A DNA stretch of 14,968 nucleotides, from positions 1 through 14,968 of the forward strand of contig JAHBVZ010000182.1 of NCBI GenBank assembly GCA_019637235.1, in the 5' to 3' direction. The stretch comes from Labilithrix sp. (GTDB lineage Bacteria > Myxococcota_A > Polyangia > Polyangiales > Polyangiaceae). This document shows, in pieces, positions 5,801 through 12,923 of this stretch. A program made the position numbers and the translations under genes. Position 1 is the first letter of the stretch. Each line of letters begins with the position of its first letter. The notes beneath the pieces were generated by a model, which saw nothing but the letters and a program-made list of their open reading frames with translations, was not told the origin of the DNA and did not search any database.

Positions 5801-7089
5801 ACCCGTCACGGACCGCCGCCAAAGGACTGCCCGAAATGCATCGACACCTCGCCGGGCGCCGCGTGAAGGGAGGGCTCTTCCTCCTCACATGCGCGCTCGC
5901 CGCCTGGCTCTTCGCCGGTTGCTCGAGCACCGTCTCCGTCGCCGAGTCGCCGGACCTGGGATCGGGCGGCTTCACGGGGCCGGGCACGGCCGACGGCGGA
6001 GACGCGTCCGTCGGTCCGGACAGGCTGCTCCAGTGCGTCGCGACCGAGTGCCCGTTCCCCTATACGACGTGCGAGACGGACACGCCGACGTACAAGTGCG
6101 AAATCAACCTCATGAACGACCGCAACAACTGCGGCGGGTGCGGGGTGAGCTGCGACGACTACGAGCCGATCGGAATGATCGGCCAGTGCGTCCAGGGCAA
6201 GTGTGACTTCCAGTGCATGATCGCCCTCGAGGATCCGATCATGAACCTGAAGAACTGCAACGGGATCCTCGACGACGGCTGCGAGGTCGACGTCTACAGC
6301 GACCCGATGAACTGCGGCGTCTGCGGGAACAAGTGCAACCCGGGCGACGCCTGCATCGAGGGCCGATGCGGCTGTCCCGCGGGCTTCACCAGCTGCAACG
6401 GGCGCTGCGTCGACCTGAGCACGAACGATCAGAACTGCGGTGAGTGCGGCCGCGCCTGCCCCTTCATCCCGGAGGACGGACCGTTCGCCGGCTGCGAGCT
6501 CATCGACAAGCACGCGCAGGCCAAGTGCCTGAACGGCGTCTGCGGGAACCTGGCCTGCCAGCTCGGCTGGGGGGACTGCGACAAGGACATGGGGCAGTGC
6601 CCGAACCACCCGCAGGGCGCCTGGTCCGGCTGCGAGACGCCGGTCACGACCCTCGAGAACTGCGGCGCGTGCGGGAACAAGTGCGGCCCCGGCCAGATCT
6701 GCGGCCGCGTCGGCCTCGAGATCAAGTGCATCGACACCTGTGACAAGCTCGGGCTCACCGACTGCGGGAGCGCGGGCGAGCAGGGCGGCGGCTGTCGCGA
6801 TCTGAACAACGATCCCAACTACTGCGGCTCGTGCGTGAACGCCTGCCCGGGCGCCGGCCCCCACCAGAGCGTCACCTGCAACAAGGGCAGCTGCGAGTAC
6901 CCGTGCGACGACGGCTACGCCGACTGCAACGGCGATCTGGCCGACGGCTGCGAGGTCAACACGATGATCAACCCCAACAACTGCGGCGGATGCGGTGTCA
7001 CGTGCGACGGCGTCCTCGGCCAGCCGTGCATCGAAGGAAAGTGCCTCACGGCGACCTGCGACGAAGACGGCGGAGTGCTGGCGCGATGA
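5797..7089 (+). CDS. Cysteine-rich secreted lipoprotein (430 aa) with about six repeats of the motif NCGxCGxxC(x..)C..G.C, resembling the STIG1-type Cys-rich domain
   Basis: ATG at 5797 overlaps the previous stop. The signal peptide 'GGLFLLTCALAAWLFAGC' has a lipobox-like Cys. Repeats include 'NNCGGCGVSCDD', 'MNCGVCGNKCNPG', 'QNCGECGRACP', 'ENCGACGNKCGPG', 'NYCGSCVNACPG' and 'NNCGGCGVTCDG', each followed by 'C..G.C'. There are many Cys. There is no CXXCH, so it is not a cytochrome. Stop TGA at 7087-7089 overlaps the next ATG at 7086. The part of ORF 4357..7089 upstream of 5797 is not part of this gene. Confidence 0.75.
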   Translation: MNPSRTAAKGLPEMHRHLAGRRVKGGLFLLTCALAAWLFAGCSSTVSVAESPDLGSGGFTGPGTADGGDASVGPDRLLQCVATECPFPYTTCETDTPTYKCEINLMNDRNNCGGCGVSCDDYEPIGMIGQCVQGKCDFQCMIALEDPIMNLKNCNGILDDGCEVDVYSDPMNCGVCGNKCNPGDACIEGRCGCPAGFTSCNGRCVDLSTNDQNCGECGRACPFIPEDGPFAGCELIDKHAQAKCLNGVCGNLACQLGWGDCDKDMGQCPNHPQGAWSGCETPVTTLENCGACGNKCGPGQICGRVGLEIKCIDTCDKLGLTDCGSAGEQGGGCRDLNNDPNYCGSCVNACPGAGPHQSVTCNKGSCEYPCDDGYADCNGDLADGCEVNTMINPNNCGGCGVTCDGVLGQPCIEGKCLTATCDEDGGVLAR

Positions 7090-8342
7090 AGCTCTCCCTC
7101 GACCGACACCTCCGCGCGCGCGCGTTCGCGCCCGTCCTCGCGCTCGGCTCGGCCGTCGGCTTTCTCGGCGCGTTCGCCAACTGCGCGGCGAGCGAGCAGG
7201 AGCCGGGCATCGACATCGACGCCGGACGCGAGGTCACGCTCGGAGCTCCGGACGCGCAGCCGTCCGACGCGTCGTGCGACGCCGACGACGCCGGGTGCGT
7301 GGTCGCCCCCGACTGCTCGCAGGTCGACTGGTGCGTCGTTCCGTCCGGCGTCCGATCCTCGGAGCGACTCACGTCGGTGTGGGGCTCGAGCAAGACCGAC
7401 GTCTGGGCGGTCGGCTCGCGAGGCAGCGCCGTCCACTACGACGGCGCCGCGTGGAAGGCCGTCCCGATCGACAACAAGTCCACCTTCTTCTCCGTCTGGG
7501 GCAGCGGCCCGAGCGACGTCTGGGCGGTGAGCGACACGATGACGATCATGCGCTCCGGCGGCTTCGCGGACGGAGGCGTGACGTGGACGCGGCTACCCCC
7601 CGTGAGCGTCGCTCCATACTTCGAGACCGCGACGACGGTGATGTTCGGCTTCGGCCCCGACGACTTCCGCATCGGGACGCAGCCGAAGGACGACGGGCCG
7701 AACCAGACGTCCGGCAACATGCTCGTCAAGGCGGCGAGCCCGGTCGAGGAGGGCAAGAGCCCGCTCACGCGCGTCGGCGGCCTCAAAGGAACCGTCACGG
7801 GCATCTGGGGCAGCTCCCCCGACGACGTCTGGATCCTCGTCGACAACCGCCGCACCAACAGCAACTACCAGGGGTCGGCGATCGAAGCGGGCAAGACCTT
7901 GCACGGACGGCCCGCCGCTCCGGGCGTGGACACGAAGGGCGACCCGCTCGACTGGACCCCGGTCGACAGCCAGGCGACCGTCGTGCTCCGCGGCATCTGG
8001 GGGAGCTCGGCCTCCGACGTCTGGGCGGTCGGCGACCACGGCACCGTCCGGCGCATCCACCCGAACGATCTCCGCTGGCAGATCGTCGACTCGCCGACGA
8101 CCGCGAACCTCCGCGCCGTCTGGGGTACGGGCCCCGAGGACATCTGGATCGTGGGCGACGCGGGGACCGTCCTCCACTGGGACGGCCTCGAGCTCAAGCC
8201 GGCGACGACGCAGCTCCCGGAGACCGACGCGCCCAACCTGTACGGCGTCTGGGGGAGCTCGGCAGACGACGTCTGGGCCGTCGGCGAGCACACCGTGCTG
8301 CACTACACGGGCGCGAAGGCGCCTCCGTCGGAGGGACCGTGA
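7086..8342 (+). CDS. Secreted beta-propeller-like repeat protein (418 aa) with six WG[ST]G..DVWAVG blades
   Basis: ATG at 7086. The signal peptide 'FAPVLALGSAVGFLGAFANCAAS' has an AFA|N or lipobox-like site. Repeats are spaced about 45-50 aa apart: 'LTSVWGSSKTDVWAVGSRGSAVHYDGAAW', 'FFSVWGSGPSDVWAVSD', 'VTGIWGSSPDDVWILVD', 'LRGIWGSSASDVWAVGDHGTVRRI', 'LRAVWGTGPEDIWIVGDAGTVLHWDG' and 'LYGVWGSSADDVWAVGEHTVLHY'. Stop TGA at 8340-8342. The ORF-track N-terminal extension 6831..7085 overlaps the previous gene and is not coding. Confidence 0.75.
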   Translation: MKLSLDRHLRARAFAPVLALGSAVGFLGAFANCAASEQEPGIDIDAGREVTLGAPDAQPSDASCDADDAGCVVAPDCSQVDWCVVPSGVRSSERLTSVWGSSKTDVWAVGSRGSAVHYDGAAWKAVPIDNKSTFFSVWGSGPSDVWAVSDTMTIMRSGGFADGGVTWTRLPPVSVAPYFETATTVMFGFGPDDFRIGTQPKDDGPNQTSGNMLVKAASPVEEGKSPLTRVGGLKGTVTGIWGSSPDDVWILVDNRRTNSNYQGSAIEAGKTLHGRPAAPGVDTKGDPLDWTPVDSQATVVLRGIWGSSASDVWAVGDHGTVRRIHPNDLRWQIVDSPTTANLRAVWGTGPEDIWIVGDAGTVLHWDGLELKPATTQLPETDAPNLYGVWGSSADDVWAVGEHTVLHYTGAKAPPSEGP

Positions 8343-9559
8343 TGATCGCTCGTCGAGGATCGTTCCTCGCCATCGTCGCGGGCCTCTCGGCGCTCGCGGT
8401 CGCCGGCGCCGCCTGCGCCACCTCCGACGTGGCCATCGGCAGCGTCGGCGACGACGACGGCACCAAGCTCGGCGGCGACGGCGGCCCTGCGGACGACGCC
8501 GAGGCCGTCGACGCCGGCGAGGAGGCGAGCCTGCCTCCGCAGCGCGCGTGCTCGGACCAGAGCTTCTGCCACACGCCCATCCCCGCGACCGCGACGCTCA
8601 CCAGCGTCTGGGGCGACGGCGCGGGCGCCGTCTGGTCGGTGAGCGCGCAGGGGAAGATCTACCGCTGGGACGGAGCCGAGTGGAAGGTCCACCACGAGCT
8701 CGCCGGCGCCGTCCTCACGGCGGTCTGGGGCGACGGTCCCACCGACGTCTGGGTCGCCGGATCGAAGGGGCTCCTGCACGGCACCGGCGCGAGCGCGGCG
8801 TCGCTCGTCTTCGCGCCCGTCGCCGATCTCCCCGGCAACCCCGACGTCCCGCTCACGTCGCTCTGGGGCTCGGGCCCGGACGACATCTGGGCCGTGGGCT
8901 ACGGCCAGGATCCGTCGACCGCCGCGCTGCTCGGGCGCGTCGTGCACTTCGCCGGCGCCGGGGGCTGGGGCGAGCTGTCGCTCGGCGTCCCGCGCGAGTA
9001 CGACTGGGATCCGGATCCCGCGGTCGCGCCGATGCAGGTCTTCGGCTCCGCGTCGTCGGGGGCGTGGGTGCACGGCGCCTGGTTCGACGACCAGAGCAAC
9101 GCCGTCGCTGTCCTCTTCCGCGTCGCCCCCGGCGCGACTGAGGGCGTCCGCGTGCGCATCCCCGAAGGCGAGGACTGGCCGCCGCGCCACCGGCCGCTCA
9201 CGGGCGCGGGCGTGACCGACGACGGCACCGTCTGGCTGGCCGCCGTCTCGCAGTCGGGCCGTCACCGCTACATCCGCGGGAACGCCCCGTACGGCGGGTC
9301 GGACTGGGAGCTGCTCTACCGCCCCCAGTACGAGTCGAACCCCCACTTCTTCTGGGGCAAGTCGAGCACCGACACCTGGCAGGTGGGCGACTTCGGGCGC
9401 CTCCGTCGCTGGGACGGCGCGAAGTGGACGCAGGCCGTGATCATGGTGACCAGCGCGCCGGTGAAGAGCGATCTCTTCGGCGCGTGGGGCACCAGCGACG
9501 ACGACTTCTGGGTGGTGGGCGACGGCATCGCCTTGCACAAGCGGCCCAAGTCGCCGTGA
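8342..9559 (+). CDS. Paralogous secreted beta-propeller-like repeat protein (405 aa), same WG..D.W.VG repeat family as the upstream gene
   Basis: ATG at 8342 (GTG at 8339 is also possible), overlapping the previous stop (TGATG). Signal peptide 'FLAIVAGLSALAVAGAAC'. Repeats: 'LTSVWGDGAGAVWSVSAQGKIYRWDGAEW', 'LTAVWGDGPTDVWVAGSKG', 'LTSLWGSGPDDIWAVGYG', 'HFFWGKSSTDTWQVGDFGRLRRWDGAKW' and 'LFGAWGTSDDDFWVVGDG'. Stop TGA at 9557-9559. Confidence 0.75.
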   Translation: MIARRGSFLAIVAGLSALAVAGAACATSDVAIGSVGDDDGTKLGGDGGPADDAEAVDAGEEASLPPQRACSDQSFCHTPIPATATLTSVWGDGAGAVWSVSAQGKIYRWDGAEWKVHHELAGAVLTAVWGDGPTDVWVAGSKGLLHGTGASAASLVFAPVADLPGNPDVPLTSLWGSGPDDIWAVGYGQDPSTAALLGRVVHFAGAGGWGELSLGVPREYDWDPDPAVAPMQVFGSASSGAWVHGAWFDDQSNAVAVLFRVAPGATEGVRVRIPEGEDWPPRHRPLTGAGVTDDGTVWLAAVSQSGRHRYIRGNAPYGGSDWELLYRPQYESNPHFFWGKSSTDTWQVGDFGRLRRWDGAKWTQAVIMVTSAPVKSDLFGAWGTSDDDFWVVGDGIALHKRPKSP

Positions 9560-9569
9560 GGACCGAACG

Positions 9570-10958
9570 ATGAAGCGAATGCACACGTGCCTGCCCGCGC
9601 TGGTGGCGATCGCCGTCGTCGGCGCGACGGTCATGGCCTGCGCCGACGACAGCGGCGGGAGCGCGCCCGAGCTCGACGACGCGGGAGCGCCGCCCCCGAC
9701 CGAGACCCTGTCCGACGCGGGCGCGGAGGCGGATCCGCCGCCGCCGTCGCGGAAGCCGCCGTTCGATCCCGCTGACGCGAAGGTGACGTGCGCCAAGGAG
9801 CCGTGCGCCGTCGAGATCGCCGCCGGAGAGGCCCACTTCTGCGCCCGCATGAGCGACGGCGCGGTCCGCTGCTGGGGCGCGAACACGGCCGGGGTGCTCG
9901 GACGACCGCCGTCGCCGGACGACGCGCCCGCCGTGGTCACCGTCGCAGGGCTCAGCGGCGTCGTGCAGCTCAGCACCAGCGGGACGACCGCCTGCGCGCT
10001 ATCGAGCGCGGGAGCCGTGCACTGCTGGGGCAACAACGCCGACGCGCTGCTCGGCCTCGAGGCCGACGATCCCGCCTCCGACGGCGCGCCTCACCCGACG
10101 CCGGCTCCGGTCGCGCTCCCCGGCCCCGCGGTGCGCGTCGACATCGGCCCGCGCGTGGGCTGCGCCGTCCTCGCGACGACCGAGACCTGGTGCTGGGGGT
10201 ACAACGGCAGCGCGCAGCTGGGACGCGCGACGGCCCAGCCGCTCGGGGCGCCCGCGCGCGCGCCGCTCGCCGGCGTGAAGGCCGCGCGGACGGCGCACGG
10301 CTCGTTCACGAGCTTCGCGGTGACGGCCGAGGGCGACGTCGTGAGCTGGGGGACCGTCGGCGGGCCGCGCGGCAACCTCGCCGCGCGCGCGTCGTCGATG
10401 GAGCTCGATCCGCGCCCGCTGCCGATCGGGCTCGGCGACGTGACGCGGCTCGCGGTCACGTCCAGCTCCACGGTTCAGCGATGGGGCTCCCCGCAGCCGC
10501 CGCTCGACGTCTACGGCCGCGCGTGCGCCGTGGTCGACGGCGAGGTCTCTTGCTGGGGCCGCAGCGAGTACGCCGCGCTCGGCACGGGTAGCCCGGACCT
10601 CGCGCTCAGGCCGACGAGGGCCGCCATGGACAGCGGGTTCGCGTGGGCCCAGCAGGTCGCGGCCGGCGGCGAGACCACGTGCGCCCGCCTCACCGACGGG
10701 ACGGTCCAGTGCGCGGGCGACAACCGCCGCGGCGGGCTCGCCGTCGGCGGCGACGCCGGCGCGGCGTTCTCGATGGCGTTCCGGCCGGCGACGGAGCTCG
10801 TGGGGCGCGCGGTCGGCGTCGCCGCGACGCAGTCGGCGGTCTGCGCGCTGCTCGAGACCGGCGCCGTCGCGTGCTGGGGCGCGAACGACGCGGGGCAGCT
10901 GGGGCAGGGGACGAGAGACGACGAGGCGCACGGGACCCCCGTAGCCGTGAAGTTCTGA
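9570..10958 (+). CDS. RCC1-repeat (regulator of chromosome condensation-like beta-propeller) lipoprotein (462 aa)
   Basis: ATG at 9570, 10 nt after the previous stop. The signal peptide 'LPALVAIAVVGATVMAC' has a lipobox. Repeated RCC1 signatures: 'VRCWGANTAGVLG', 'VHCWGNNADALLG', 'TWCWGYNGSAQLG', 'VSCWGRSEYAALG', 'VQCAGDNRRGGLA' and 'VACWGANDAGQLGQG'. Stop TGA at 10956-10958. Confidence 0.8.
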   Translation: MKRMHTCLPALVAIAVVGATVMACADDSGGSAPELDDAGAPPPTETLSDAGAEADPPPPSRKPPFDPADAKVTCAKEPCAVEIAAGEAHFCARMSDGAVRCWGANTAGVLGRPPSPDDAPAVVTVAGLSGVVQLSTSGTTACALSSAGAVHCWGNNADALLGLEADDPASDGAPHPTPAPVALPGPAVRVDIGPRVGCAVLATTETWCWGYNGSAQLGRATAQPLGAPARAPLAGVKAARTAHGSFTSFAVTAEGDVVSWGTVGGPRGNLAARASSMELDPRPLPIGLGDVTRLAVTSSSTVQRWGSPQPPLDVYGRACAVVDGEVSCWGRSEYAALGTGSPDLALRPTRAAMDSGFAWAQQVAAGGETTCARLTDGTVQCAGDNRRGGLAVGGDAGAAFSMAFRPATELVGRAVGVAATQSAVCALLETGAVACWGANDAGQLGQGTRDDEAHGTPVAVKF

Positions 10959-10972
10959 GAGGTGTGTGCTTC

Positions 10973-12793
10973 ATGAGCTCTTCCAAGACAGCGTCGCGCG
11001 GGTTCCTCTGCGCGCTCGGGATCGCCTTCGGCGTGTCCGCCATGGGCGCTTGCTCGGGCGCCGATCGCCGCTTCGCCACGAACGACGATCAGTTCGAAGG
11101 GGACGCCGGGCCGCTGCCGGACGAGTCCGAGAGCTGCGGGCGTCACTGCTCGCGCGACCTCAAGCAGGTCCTCGAGGGCTGCGAGGGCGCGGAGACGGTC
11201 GTCCAGCAGTGCAACCCCGACCAGGGTTGCGGCGGGGAGGCGTGCGTCGACGCCTGCCTCGCGGCCCAGGCGCAGCGTGGATCCGCCGGCTGCGAGTTCT
11301 TGACCTTGCCGCCGGAGGACGCGACGGGCGTCAACGGCTCGTGCTTCGCCGCGCTGATCGCGAACACGTGGGACCGCGCCGTCGAGCTCACGGCCGAGTA
11401 CGACGGCGCGCCGCTCGACATCTCCGGGTCGACCTACATCGTCGACCGCAAGGGGGCGGCGACCTCCGAGTCCTACACGCTGCTCGAGGGGCCGCTCCCG
11501 GCAGGGCAGGTCGCCGTGGTCATGCTCTCGGATCAGTCCCCCGTGCACGATCCCGTGGGCGGCCAGATCGTCCACTGCCCGCCCAGCACGAAGGCCGCGC
11601 TCGACTTCGATCCCATCCGCCACGGGACGGTGCTCACCAAGTCGTTCCGCATCGCGGCCGACGCCCCCGTCGCGGCGTACGCGAGCTACCCGTACGGCGG
11701 CGAGATCGGCAAGTACCCGACCGCGACGCTCCTCTTCCCGGTGTCCGCCTGGGAGAAGGAGTACATCGCCGTCAGCCCGTTCGACTTCCCCTTCGATTTC
11801 TGGGTGCAGGTCCCGAACCACCGCTGGCTGCAGATCGTCGCGGCGGAGGACGCGACCGACGTGACGATCACGCCGAACGCGGACATCGGCGCCTCGCCCG
11901 AGACCGCCCCCGCGTACGCGGGGCAGCCGCAGACCTACCGCCTGGCGCGCGGGCAGGTCCTCCAGATCATGCAGCCGCGCGTGAACCTCACCGGCTCGCC
12001 GATCTCGGCCAGCAAGCCGATCGCGCTCTTCGGCGGCTCTTCGGCGACGTTCCTCGCGGCGACGGCCGCCGACGTCCTCGGCCAGCAGATCCCCGCGGTG
12101 GCGCAGTGGGGCTCGCGCTACGCCGTCGTCCCGTTCCGCTCGCGCATCCAGACCTTCGACAGCGACTTCCGCGAGAACGTGCCCTACACGCTCCTGGGCG
12201 CGGTCGACGGCACCGTGCTCGAGTACGCGCCGTCGCGGCCGAACGGCGCGCCGGAGACGCTCTCCGCCGGTGAGTCGGTCCACTTCTTCACCGACCAGGT
12301 CTTCGTCGTGAAGTCCCAGGACAAGGAGCACCCGATCTACGCGGCGGTCTACATGACTGGCTCGGGGTACGGGAACGGGACGGGGCAGCTGACGACGGGG
12401 GATCCGGACTTCGTGAACATCCCGCCGGCCGATCAGTTCGTCGATCGTTGCGTGTTCTTCACGGACTACACGTACCCCGACACGTCGCTCACCGTCGTGC
12501 GCAAGAAGGTGCACGGCCAGTTCAAGCCCGTCACGCTCGACTGCACGGGCGACGTCACCTCGTTCTTGCCGCTCGACGGGCAGGACGGCGAGTTCGAGTA
12601 CGCGTGGGTGAAGCTGACCGAGGGCTACGTCGAGCGTGCGGTCGGCGAAAAGAAGTGCGGGTACGGCCGGCAGGAAGCGTCCAGCGACGGACCGTTCGCG
12701 ATCACGGTCTGGGGGACGGGCCTGGCTTCGAGCTACGGCTACGTCGCCGGGACCGGGCTCCGGCCCATCAACAGCTACGCGCCGATCAAGTGA
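10973..12793 (+). CDS. Secreted lipoprotein (606 aa) with a domain resembling the N-terminal IgGFc-binding (Fcgbp-N) domain, plus an N-terminal Cys-containing region
   Basis: ATG at 10973, 14 nt after the previous stop. Signal peptide 'FLCALGIAFGVSAMGAC'. 'YRLARGQVLQIMQPRVNLTGSPISASKPIALFGGSSATFL...LGQQIPAVAQWGSRYAVVPF' matches, from memory, the Fcgbp-N pattern 'DLTGS.V.S.KPVAVFSGH.C..VP...CDHLVEQL.P...WG..Y.V'. The 716-aa ORF-track version begins upstream inside the RCC1 gene; that extension is rejected. Stop TGA at 12791-12793. Confidence 0.7.
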   Translation: MSSSKTASRGFLCALGIAFGVSAMGACSGADRRFATNDDQFEGDAGPLPDESESCGRHCSRDLKQVLEGCEGAETVVQQCNPDQGCGGEACVDACLAAQAQRGSAGCEFLTLPPEDATGVNGSCFAALIANTWDRAVELTAEYDGAPLDISGSTYIVDRKGAATSESYTLLEGPLPAGQVAVVMLSDQSPVHDPVGGQIVHCPPSTKAALDFDPIRHGTVLTKSFRIAADAPVAAYASYPYGGEIGKYPTATLLFPVSAWEKEYIAVSPFDFPFDFWVQVPNHRWLQIVAAEDATDVTITPNADIGASPETAPAYAGQPQTYRLARGQVLQIMQPRVNLTGSPISASKPIALFGGSSATFLAATAADVLGQQIPAVAQWGSRYAVVPFRSRIQTFDSDFRENVPYTLLGAVDGTVLEYAPSRPNGAPETLSAGESVHFFTDQVFVVKSQDKEHPIYAAVYMTGSGYGNGTGQLTTGDPDFVNIPPADQFVDRCVFFTDYTYPDTSLTVVRKKVHGQFKPVTLDCTGDVTSFLPLDGQDGEFEYAWVKLTEGYVERAVGEKKCGYGRQEASSDGPFAITVWGTGLASSYGYVAGTGLRPINSYAPIK

Positions 12794-12883
12794 GCACGAG
12801 AGCGATCGTCGAGCCGGCGAGGGCGAGAGGACGGGGCAGGGCGCCGTCGATCCTCGAATCGATCTTCCGAGAACACCATCATT

Positions 12884-12910
12884 CCATCCGCCCGCGCGCC
12901 GGCCGGATGG
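12884..12910 (+). other. GC-rich imperfect inverted repeat (potential RNA hairpin) between the operon end and the RBS of the next gene
   Basis: 'ccatccg' (12884-12890) and 'cggatgg' (12904-12910) are exact reverse complements, and 3 more inner pairs extend the dyad. It is followed immediately by a strong RBS 'gggaggg' (12909-12915) and ATG 12924. No T-run follows. It could be a T-less terminator for the upstream operon or a leader structure. Confidence 0.3.
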
Positions 12911-12923
12911 GAGGGCTTGAGCC

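Follow-up and report, generated by a model that had tools for sequence, protein, structure and literature searches.

Predicted seven-bladed beta-propellers encoded as an anciently diverged pair in a multiplied ECF sigma factor cassette of Labilithrix-type myxobacteria

The DNA considered here is a 14,968-nucleotide stretch of the forward strand of contig JAHBVZ010000182.1 (positions 1 to 14,968; GenBank assembly GCA_019637235.1) from Labilithrix sp., a soil myxobacterium of the Polyangiaceae (Myxococcota), and is referred to as the window. The window has a G+C content of about 72% and contains many spurious open reading frames, and its real genes were chosen by homology and family matches. Two adjacent genes are the main subject, and these, like all window features described below, lie on the forward strand. 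PropA (7086..8342) encodes 418 amino acids (aa) from an ATG at 7086 to a stop codon at 8340-8342, and PropB (8342..9559) encodes 405 aa from an ATG at 8342 to a stop codon ending at 9559; both products are lipoprotein-like and are predicted to be seven-bladed beta-propellers. The initial annotation of this DNA had placed the pair at 7086-9559, which is exact from the start ATG of the first gene to the final stop base of the second. The ATG of PropB overlaps the TGA of PropA as TGATG, and the ATG of PropA overlaps the stop codon of the preceding gene, CysA (ATGA). The pair is part of an eight-gene cassette in the order outer-membrane-protein (OMP)-like, extracytoplasmic function (ECF) sigma, putative anti-sigma, CysA, PropA, PropB, RCC1 propeller, and FCGBP_N protein. 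The initial annotation left out this operon context, which we rate as the more remarkable feature of the locus.

Both propellers carry a Trp/Gly-rich repeat. A loose form of the motif, [WF]G-x4-[DGT]-x-[WR], occurs seven times in PropA (at aa 99, 138, 187, 241, 305, 346, and 389) and five times in PropB, where a slightly looser pattern is found six times (at aa 90, 129, 175, 234, 338, and 382). When each protein was shuffled 20,000 times the mean motif counts were 0.08 and 0.12 and the maximum was 3, so that the W-G-x4-D-V-W repeat pointed out in the initial annotation is real in both proteins. The copies are spaced 39-64 aa apart in PropA and 39-104 aa apart in PropB. The canonical unit of about 39-46 aa is shorter than the 45-50 aa first estimated. 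The five or six repeats originally counted per protein are real, but the count falls short since PropA has seven loose copies and both structural models have seven blades. The lower count is explained by blades 3-5, whose sequences are degenerate and contain insertions, and the excess of modelled blades over motif copies indicates that one or two blades per protein have degenerated in sequence.

The AlphaFold2 models were built from alignments of 66 homologs (PropA) and 59 homologs (PropB) and have mean pLDDT (predicted local distance difference test) values of 84.4 for PropA and 85.5 for PropB, with a predicted template modelling (TM) score of 0.81. In both models 28-29 strands are predicted to be arranged as 7 x 4 in a closed seven-bladed beta-propeller, spanning aa 82-407 of PropA (7329..8306, with the seven four-stranded blades assigned by DSSP) and aa 75-400 of PropB (8564..9541). 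A strand N-terminal to the first blade (residues 82-84 in PropA and 75-77 in PropB) apparently serves as the fourth strand of blade 7, giving a "velcro" closure, and both modelled proteins terminate directly after blade 7. The propeller reading of the initial annotation is thus borne out by high-confidence prediction, and neither a non-propeller fold nor a clear match to a characterised family was found. The blade unit of about 39 aa reads L-x-x-V-W-G-S-G-P-N-D-V-W-A-V-G-x-x-G-T-I-L-H-Y-D-G-x-x-W. In this unit xxVWGS forms the inner strand A, GPND the tight A-B turn, VWAVG strand B, and TILHY strand C, while DGxxW forms the C-D hairpin, a shortened Asp-box-like turn that is followed by strand D. 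Strands A and B are the most conserved (per-position entropy of 1.1-1.3 bits) and the loops on both faces are more variable (2.0-2.5 bits). Most conserved positions are W, G, D, or H residues located in the inner strands and turns, and they form no obvious catalytic arrangement.

The N-termini of both proteins have a charged or basic n-region, a hydrophobic stretch, and a Cys residue. The PropA signal peptide (7086..7184) ends in a lipobox-like F-A-N-C at Cys33, and the PropB lipobox is G-A-A-C at Cys25. Asn at position -1 to Cys33 is atypical for a lipobox. Across the homologs, A31, C33, and A34 of PropA are each at least 90% conserved and C25 of PropB is invariant. About 30 acidic, low-complexity residues follow Cys33 in PropA and are disordered in the model (pLDDT below 50 for residues 1-62), and an acidic low-complexity segment after Cys25 of PropB is likewise disordered. 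These features support a reading of PropA and PropB as putative exported lipoproteins with a flexible acidic tether, in keeping with the initial description of both as exported. PropA also has a four-Cys cap (C64, C71, C77, and C83; 7275..7334) that starts shortly before the N-terminal closing strand and extends into it. Among the 66 homologs, C77 and C83 do not vary, and C64 and C71 are at least 90% conserved. PropB has two conserved cysteines (70 and 76), and in both proteins the cysteines lie just before the first strand. The cap cysteines of PropA probably form disulfide bonds.

No Pfam or NCBIfam model reached its cutoff with PropA or PropB, and the initial annotation likewise could not place the motif confidently in a named family. 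The nearest signals for PropA are NCBIfam Ycf48 (NF010237; 20.2 bits against a cutoff of 326, E 2.5e-4), Pfam PSII_BNR (PF14870; 15.5 bits, cutoff 27), and Pfam Tectonin (PF19193; 14.9 bits, cutoff 30, E 0.018); PropB has no relevant match in either database. Among the 66 PropA-type homologs, seven match PSII_BNR at E <=0.01 (best E 1.3e-6) and four match Tectonin weakly. A profile search of PDB sequences returned chance-level matches only (TLAP2, E 0.02; Lmo0182, E 0.43). By structure, Ycf48 chains fill about the top ten Foldseek ranks for both PropA and PropB (E 1e-12 and 6e-11, target-normalised TM 0.66-0.75, 14-20% identity), and COG-style labels such as "photosystem II stability/assembly factor-like" already hint at this kinship. 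PSII-like propellers have been placed in the Asp-box supercluster (Pereira and Lupas, PMC9218822). The canonical Asp-box, searched as S.D.G.[TS][WFY], has no matches in PropA and PropB; a shortened D-G-x-x-W is present in one blade of PropA and three blades of PropB. Because of the sub-cutoff scores and the absent canonical SxDxGxTW box, PropA and PropB are filed as a separate, distant branch of the Ycf48/PSII_BNR lineage that has no name of its own, and not as members of the Ycf48 family. Membership among canonical BNR/Asp-box proteins was rejected because there are no SxDxGxTW matches, and WD40 membership was rejected because the WD40 repeat profile is not matched.

The likeness to two-component-regulator and tachylectin blades that was suggested initially holds at the level of fold only; there is no family match, and Ycf48 is closer. 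Sensor propellers of Bacteroides hybrid two-component systems (HTCS) occupy ranks 14-23 in the Foldseek search with PropB (E ~1e-8), and tectonin 2 (PDB 5fsb) is at rank 27 for PropA with a query-normalised TM of only 0.37. The HTCS sensors (Reg_prop; BT4663, BT4673, and BT3049) are, like the predicted form of PropA and PropB, extracytoplasmic seven-bladed propellers, and they sense glycans and pass the signal to the dedicated regulator of a locus family that is present in many copies. In contrast to HTCS proteins, PropA and PropB are separate lipoprotein-like proteins without a kinase fusion, and the regulator would be an ECF sigma factor with its putative anti-sigma factor. Reg_prop membership was rejected as there is no Pfam match at E <=1, the proteins end after blade 7, and the similarity is at fold level only. 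The lectin propellers of the tectonin/tachylectin type share Trp/Gly-rich blades with PropA and PropB, and carbohydrate binding is a plausible analogy; tectonin membership itself was rejected on the sub-cutoff score and the low TM.

PropA and PropB are paralogous. They are 28% identical over 356 aa by BLASTP (E 3e-21), and a profile-profile comparison gives a probability of 100% over 376 columns (E 2.3e-91). Both genes are maintained by purifying selection, as the ratio of nonsynonymous to synonymous substitution rates (dN/dS) against the orthologs in a related locus (L001) is 0.21 for PropA and 0.22 for PropB. The age of the pair was examined by neighbour joining with 138 propellers, drawn from 70 tandem pairs in 12 genomes. 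The tree has one clade with all 70 genes of the first position and a second clade with all 68 genes of the second position, and the order A then B is never reversed. Mean identity is 0.42 between A proteins, 0.37 between B proteins, and 0.26 between A and B proteins, and A and B proteins of the same locus are no more alike (also 0.26). The perfect positional split and the equal A-B identity indicate that the duplication is older than the multiplication of the cassette. Thus, the A/B duplication is old, predates cassette multiplication, and has not been homogenised since. The initial annotation was right that the pair has diverged, and the phylogeny it called for separates the A and B clades; its picture of a local duplication is refuted by the tree.

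The other genes of the cassette surround the pair. The first (3248..4354) encodes a secreted protein of 368 aa in which a Pro/Ser-rich linker joins an N-terminal domain to about 170 C-terminal residues that end in ...GIGYEFP; it has no family match in Pfam or NCBIfam scans, and from its sequence looks like an outer-membrane protein. A 60-nt AT-richer spacer (4355..4414) upstream of the GTG start of the ECF sigma gene is a candidate promoter or 5' untranslated region and is largely conserved in the L001 ortholog, while the flanking proteins are only 60-79% identical. The ECF-type sigma factor (4415..4957, 180 aa) matches Pfam Sigma70_r2 (1.5e-8), Sigma70_r4_2 (3.8e-13), and Sigma70_ECF (1.2e-4), and scores 70.6 bits against NCBIfam TIGR02937, above the cutoff of 42.9. 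The following gene (4954..5800), which overlaps the sigma gene as ATGA, encodes a protein that has a single transmembrane helix and, at its C-terminus, a small helical domain, and that matches no Pfam family and no anti-sigma family; its position and topology suggest an anti-sigma factor. CysA (5797..7089) encodes a 430-aa protein with 54 Cys residues and a lipobox LFAGC that is Stig1-like (Pfam Stig1, 7.6e-10) and MXAN_6577-like (NCBIfam C_rich_MXAN6577, 89.4 bits, below the cutoff of 100). Downstream of PropB are an RCC1-repeat propeller lipoprotein (9570..10958, 462 aa, lipobox VMAC; Pfam WD40_RLD 9.5e-48, RCC1_2 1.8e-32, and RCC1 6.6e-22) and an FCGBP_N lipoprotein (10973..12793, 606 aa, lipobox MGAC; Pfam IgGFc_binding 8e-90). 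Further downstream, CysB (12924..14138) encodes a second Cys-rich lipoprotein-like protein of 404 aa with 57 Cys residues and no Pfam or NCBIfam match, in which E[TS]D[VLI]DCGGxC recurs at least six times at intervals of about 49 aa. CysB was seen, among the examined loci, only in the cassette lineage of the window itself (L001 and L003) and in L034. From the sigma gene through the FCGBP_N gene, stop and start codons overlap (ATGA, ATGA, ATGA, and TGATG) or are 10-14 nt apart. All six structural proteins of the window cassette have lipobox-like signals. A scan of 2800..14968 for sigma-70 consensus promoters and terminators found none.

Two further features precede the cassette in the window. 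The product of a gene at 154..2928 (924 aa) is a bacterial homolog of the major vault protein (MVP) of eukaryotes, with matches to Pfam MVP_shoulder (1.9e-13) and Vault_3 (7e-7) and to PDB MVP by phmmer over residues 318-833 (E 6e-21). A vault-like gene, 98% identical, also adjoins the cassette in another Labilithrix metagenome-assembled genome (MAG; locus L004). Between the vault-like gene and the first cassette gene is a tRNA-Glu gene with anticodon CTC (2983..3055). In a separate observation, window positions 5797..12793 show mosaic identity to locus L003 (MAG ACE_MYX5, contig 268): CysA and PropA are 99-100% identical and PropB, RCC1, and FCGBP_N are about 94% identical, with synonymous divergence (dS) of 0.013 and 0.10-0.19, respectively. 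Recombination with a breakpoint close to the PropA/PropB junction may account for this pattern, as may a mixture of strains in the MAG.

A scan of genomes listed at least 572 relatives, of which the best 79, from 12 genomes, form the basis of the neighbourhood counts given here. Labilithrix luteola DSM 27648 contributes 13 of these loci and four MAGs contribute 10-19 each. PropA is preceded by CysA in 71 of 72 loci and paired with a second propeller in 69 of 74; downstream, RCC1 is present in 68 of 72 and IgGFc_binding in 62 of 67. An ECF sigma gene is found near PropA in 58 of 69 loci by tblastn alone, and jackhmmer places a homolog of the OMP-like protein (350-370 aa) immediately before the ECF gene in 71 loci. 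In L001, on a 78-kb contig, the genes encode a 347-aa protein, an ECF sigma factor, a 292-aa protein, a Stig1-like protein, PropA, PropB, an RCC1 protein, and an IgGFc_binding protein, and two more copies of this arrangement on the flanks bring three cassettes within one 21-kb stretch. Cassette copies are only 30-50% identical to the window proteins, and at least 10-19 diverged copies per genome are present among the loci fetched. In 39 complete cassettes the pairwise distances of CysA, PropA, PropB, RCC1, and FCGBP_N co-vary (Spearman 0.69-0.83), which indicates that the five lipoprotein genes are duplicated en bloc. In Myxococcus sp. a relative of 659 aa is encoded by a solitary gene surrounded by housekeeping genes, and thus the cassette seems to be particular to Labilithrix-like lineages. 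FCGBP_N is typical of surface proteins of gliding bacteria, and an unexplained total of 103 FCGBP_N proteins has been counted in L. luteola (Lang et al. 2016, PMC4948705). By extrapolation, this number would fit about a hundred cassettes in that species.

The repeat is also found far beyond the cassette. PropA has more than 4,384 relatives among 90%-identity clusters, most of them proteins of about 400 aa from Labilithrix and related MAGs, and PropB has a narrower set of 135. A profile made from the PropA alignment matched 41,618 proteins at E <=1e-3 and 7,014 at E <=1e-30 among 1.84 billion representatives. Many of the best matches are proteins of 700-6,700 aa with 8-45 matched stretches; they include proteins of Desulfonema limicola and Pendulispora albinea as well as fusions with LapA, Calx-beta, or FGE-sulfatase-type domains. 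The largest reach 6,713 aa with 45 stretches of near-perfect 39-aa copies; WP_207689828.1 from D. limicola is an example of a giant protein built from the 39-aa repeat. A Pfam scan of these giant proteins left the 39-aa repeat regions unannotated.

The structural and evolutionary statements, which concern the fold and paralogy of the propellers, the age of the A/B pair, the conservation and multiplicity of the cassette, and purifying selection, are made with high confidence. PropA and PropB are anciently diverged propellers, probably lipid-anchored and extracytoplasmic, that form the fixed A and B components of a translationally coupled cassette of eight genes, which Labilithrix-type myxobacteria have multiplied many times with the copies diverging to 30-50% identity. 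The function proposed for the cassette is put forward more tentatively, at somewhat less than an even chance. The two propellers may have a non-catalytic role in binding or as a scaffold, joining the lipoproteins encoded with them in a heteromeric complex of the envelope that is probably located at the outer membrane or exposed on the surface. Each cassette would be switched on by its own ECF sigma/anti-sigma pair and would thus be a self-contained regulatory unit, and divergence between cassettes may give different ligand or partner specificities, the possible ligands being glycans, cell surfaces, prey, or the substratum. A binding role is favoured because the 39-aa repeat also builds giant adhesin-like proteins, because FCGBP_N is associated with bacterial surface proteins, because the conserved positions are mainly structural W, G, D, and H residues, and because glycan-sensing propellers are among the fold neighbours. 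Taken as a whole, the explanation that joins the propeller family, the cassette, and the functional model is judged somewhat probable.

Several observations weigh against this model. A hypervariable face of the propeller was sought by entropy on strands and loops, and none stands out. The invariant polar residues R195 and R322 could be part of an active or binding site. The distances of the ECF sigma factors correlate weakly with those of the lipoproteins in the 39 complete cassettes (Spearman 0.17-0.28); regulators may be exchanged or may not always travel with the structural genes, or the short sigma sequence may be saturated. Enrichment of 6-mers upstream of 68 ECF genes revealed no shared promoter motif, the scan giving T-runs and weak words such as TTCTGA (21 of 68). 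The anti-sigma and outer-membrane assignments are drawn from gene position and sequence pattern, and the anti-sigma gene is frameshifted in this contig. An intact ortholog of 292 aa aligns by tblastn with frame 1 of the window at 4954-5406 and with frame 2 at 5498-5770, and comparison with the intact 281-aa ortholog of L004 locates a 1-nt deletion near 5408 and small indels to about 5500. The break is either a pseudogene or an assembly error.

The organisation of the cassette resembles that of FecA-FecR-FecI modules and of ECF-regulated loci of the Bacteroidetes, in which an outer-membrane component, a single-pass anti-sigma factor, an ECF sigma factor, and surface proteins are encoded together; the cassette would share these parts by analogy. 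Polysaccharide utilisation loci of the Bacteroidetes, which are multiplied per genome with diverged specificities, may be likened to it in the same way. Unlike FecA-type and Bacteroidetes loci, the cassette has no SusC/SusD and no enzymes, and its structural genes encode three propellers, an FCGBP_N protein, and Cys-rich proteins. Family scans detected neither a TonB-dependent receptor nor a Plug domain in the products of the cassette genes, and the OMP-like protein is small and unassigned. A more specific proposal, which is possible but regarded as doubtful, is that the cassette is an undescribed, modular, self-regulated envelope receptor or adhesin, with an OMP-like anchor and five lipoproteins including an obligatory PropA/PropB heteromer, controlled by its own ECF sigma/anti-sigma switch and expanded in Labilithrix-type myxobacteria to the order of 100 diverged specificities, or roughly 1 Mb of a 12-Mb genome. 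Its logic would be like that of the polysaccharide utilisation loci but with entirely different parts.

An alternative is that PropA and PropB are assembly chaperones that hold unassembled segments of envelope proteins, as Ycf48 does with D1 of photosystem II. Ycf48/HCF136 (PDB 2xbg, 5ojr, and 8am5_S) is a seven-bladed propeller of about 300 aa, is the best structural match for both proteins, and is the only curated family with any sequence signal. Its blade has the same succession of a hydrophobic strand, a tight turn, a W-x-V-G strand, a G-x-I-L strand, a D-G hairpin, and a W residue. Cyanobacterial Ycf48 is a lipoprotein, and like it PropA and PropB appear to be tethered by an N-terminal lipid anchor. 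Unlike Ycf48, PropA has a four-Cys N-terminal cap, blades 3-4 contain large insertions, the canonical SxDxGxTW box is absent, and the genes form a fixed A/B pair inside a multiplied ECF sigma cassette of a non-photosynthetic host. No photosystem genes are present in the window or related loci. The family scores are far below their cutoffs, and a chaperone role leaves unexplained why there are dozens of diverged copies that each come with a sigma factor of their own and four further lipoproteins. This alternative is considered unlikely.

It is equally improbable that the propellers are enzymes, whether virginiamycin B lyase-like or Asp-box glycoside hydrolases, and that the cassette is a degradative locus. 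The match to the lyase is at 13-14% identity and generic to the fold, as WD40 proteins score almost as well. The canonical Asp-box is missing, no hydrolase or lyase family is matched by any cassette gene, and long tandem arrays of the repeat in giant adhesin-like proteins are typical of binding modules rather than enzymes.

Several of the paralogs in L. luteola are labelled "Type IV fimbrial biogenesis protein PilY1" in public records. The C-terminal domain of PilY1 is also a propeller, and PilY1 shares an extracellular location with the predicted site of PropA and PropB. A role as PilY1-type tip adhesins of type IV pili is nonetheless extremely unlikely, and the identity was rejected: there is no PilY1/PilC Pfam match even at E <=1, PropA and PropB have about 400 aa (one-third the size of PilY1) and a lipoprotein-type signal, and no pilin or minor-pilin gene is found in the window or the 79 related loci. 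Myxobacterial pilY1 is located in fimU-pilWVY1X clusters (PMC6060248). Just as negligible is the chance that PropA and PropB are a recent local tandem duplication, redundant or sub-functionalising and without wider organisation: the two homologous neighbours do share a strand, but they are split by position across all tandem pairs, no closer within a locus than between loci, never reversed in order, and both under purifying selection.

The propeller fold itself is ordinary and of a known kind. What is new is the repeat as a distinct unit outside Pfam and NCBIfam, the fixed A/B pairing, and the high-copy eight-gene ECF cassette; no description of the family or the cassette was found in the literature searched on Labilithrix and on Ycf48 in non-photosynthetic bacteria, where the count of 103 FCGBP_N proteins in L. 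luteola was the sole pertinent statement. No curated model covers the "VWGSGPNDVWAVG...GTILHYDG..W" unit, although more than 40,000 representative proteins contain it, and a dedicated family model for the 39-aa unit would annotate a large block of "hypothetical" envelope proteins. If all 103 FCGBP_N proteins of L. luteola were located in cassettes of about 9.5 kb, the cassettes would by extrapolation occupy about 1 Mb, or about 8% of the 12.2-Mb genome, which would be a partial answer to the large size of such myxobacterial genomes. The cassette points to an unstudied repertoire for recognition or adhesion, an idea that can be tested because L. luteola DSM 27648 is cultivable. If the receptor or adhesin proposal is true, this would be a recognition repertoire for prey, polymers, or kin.

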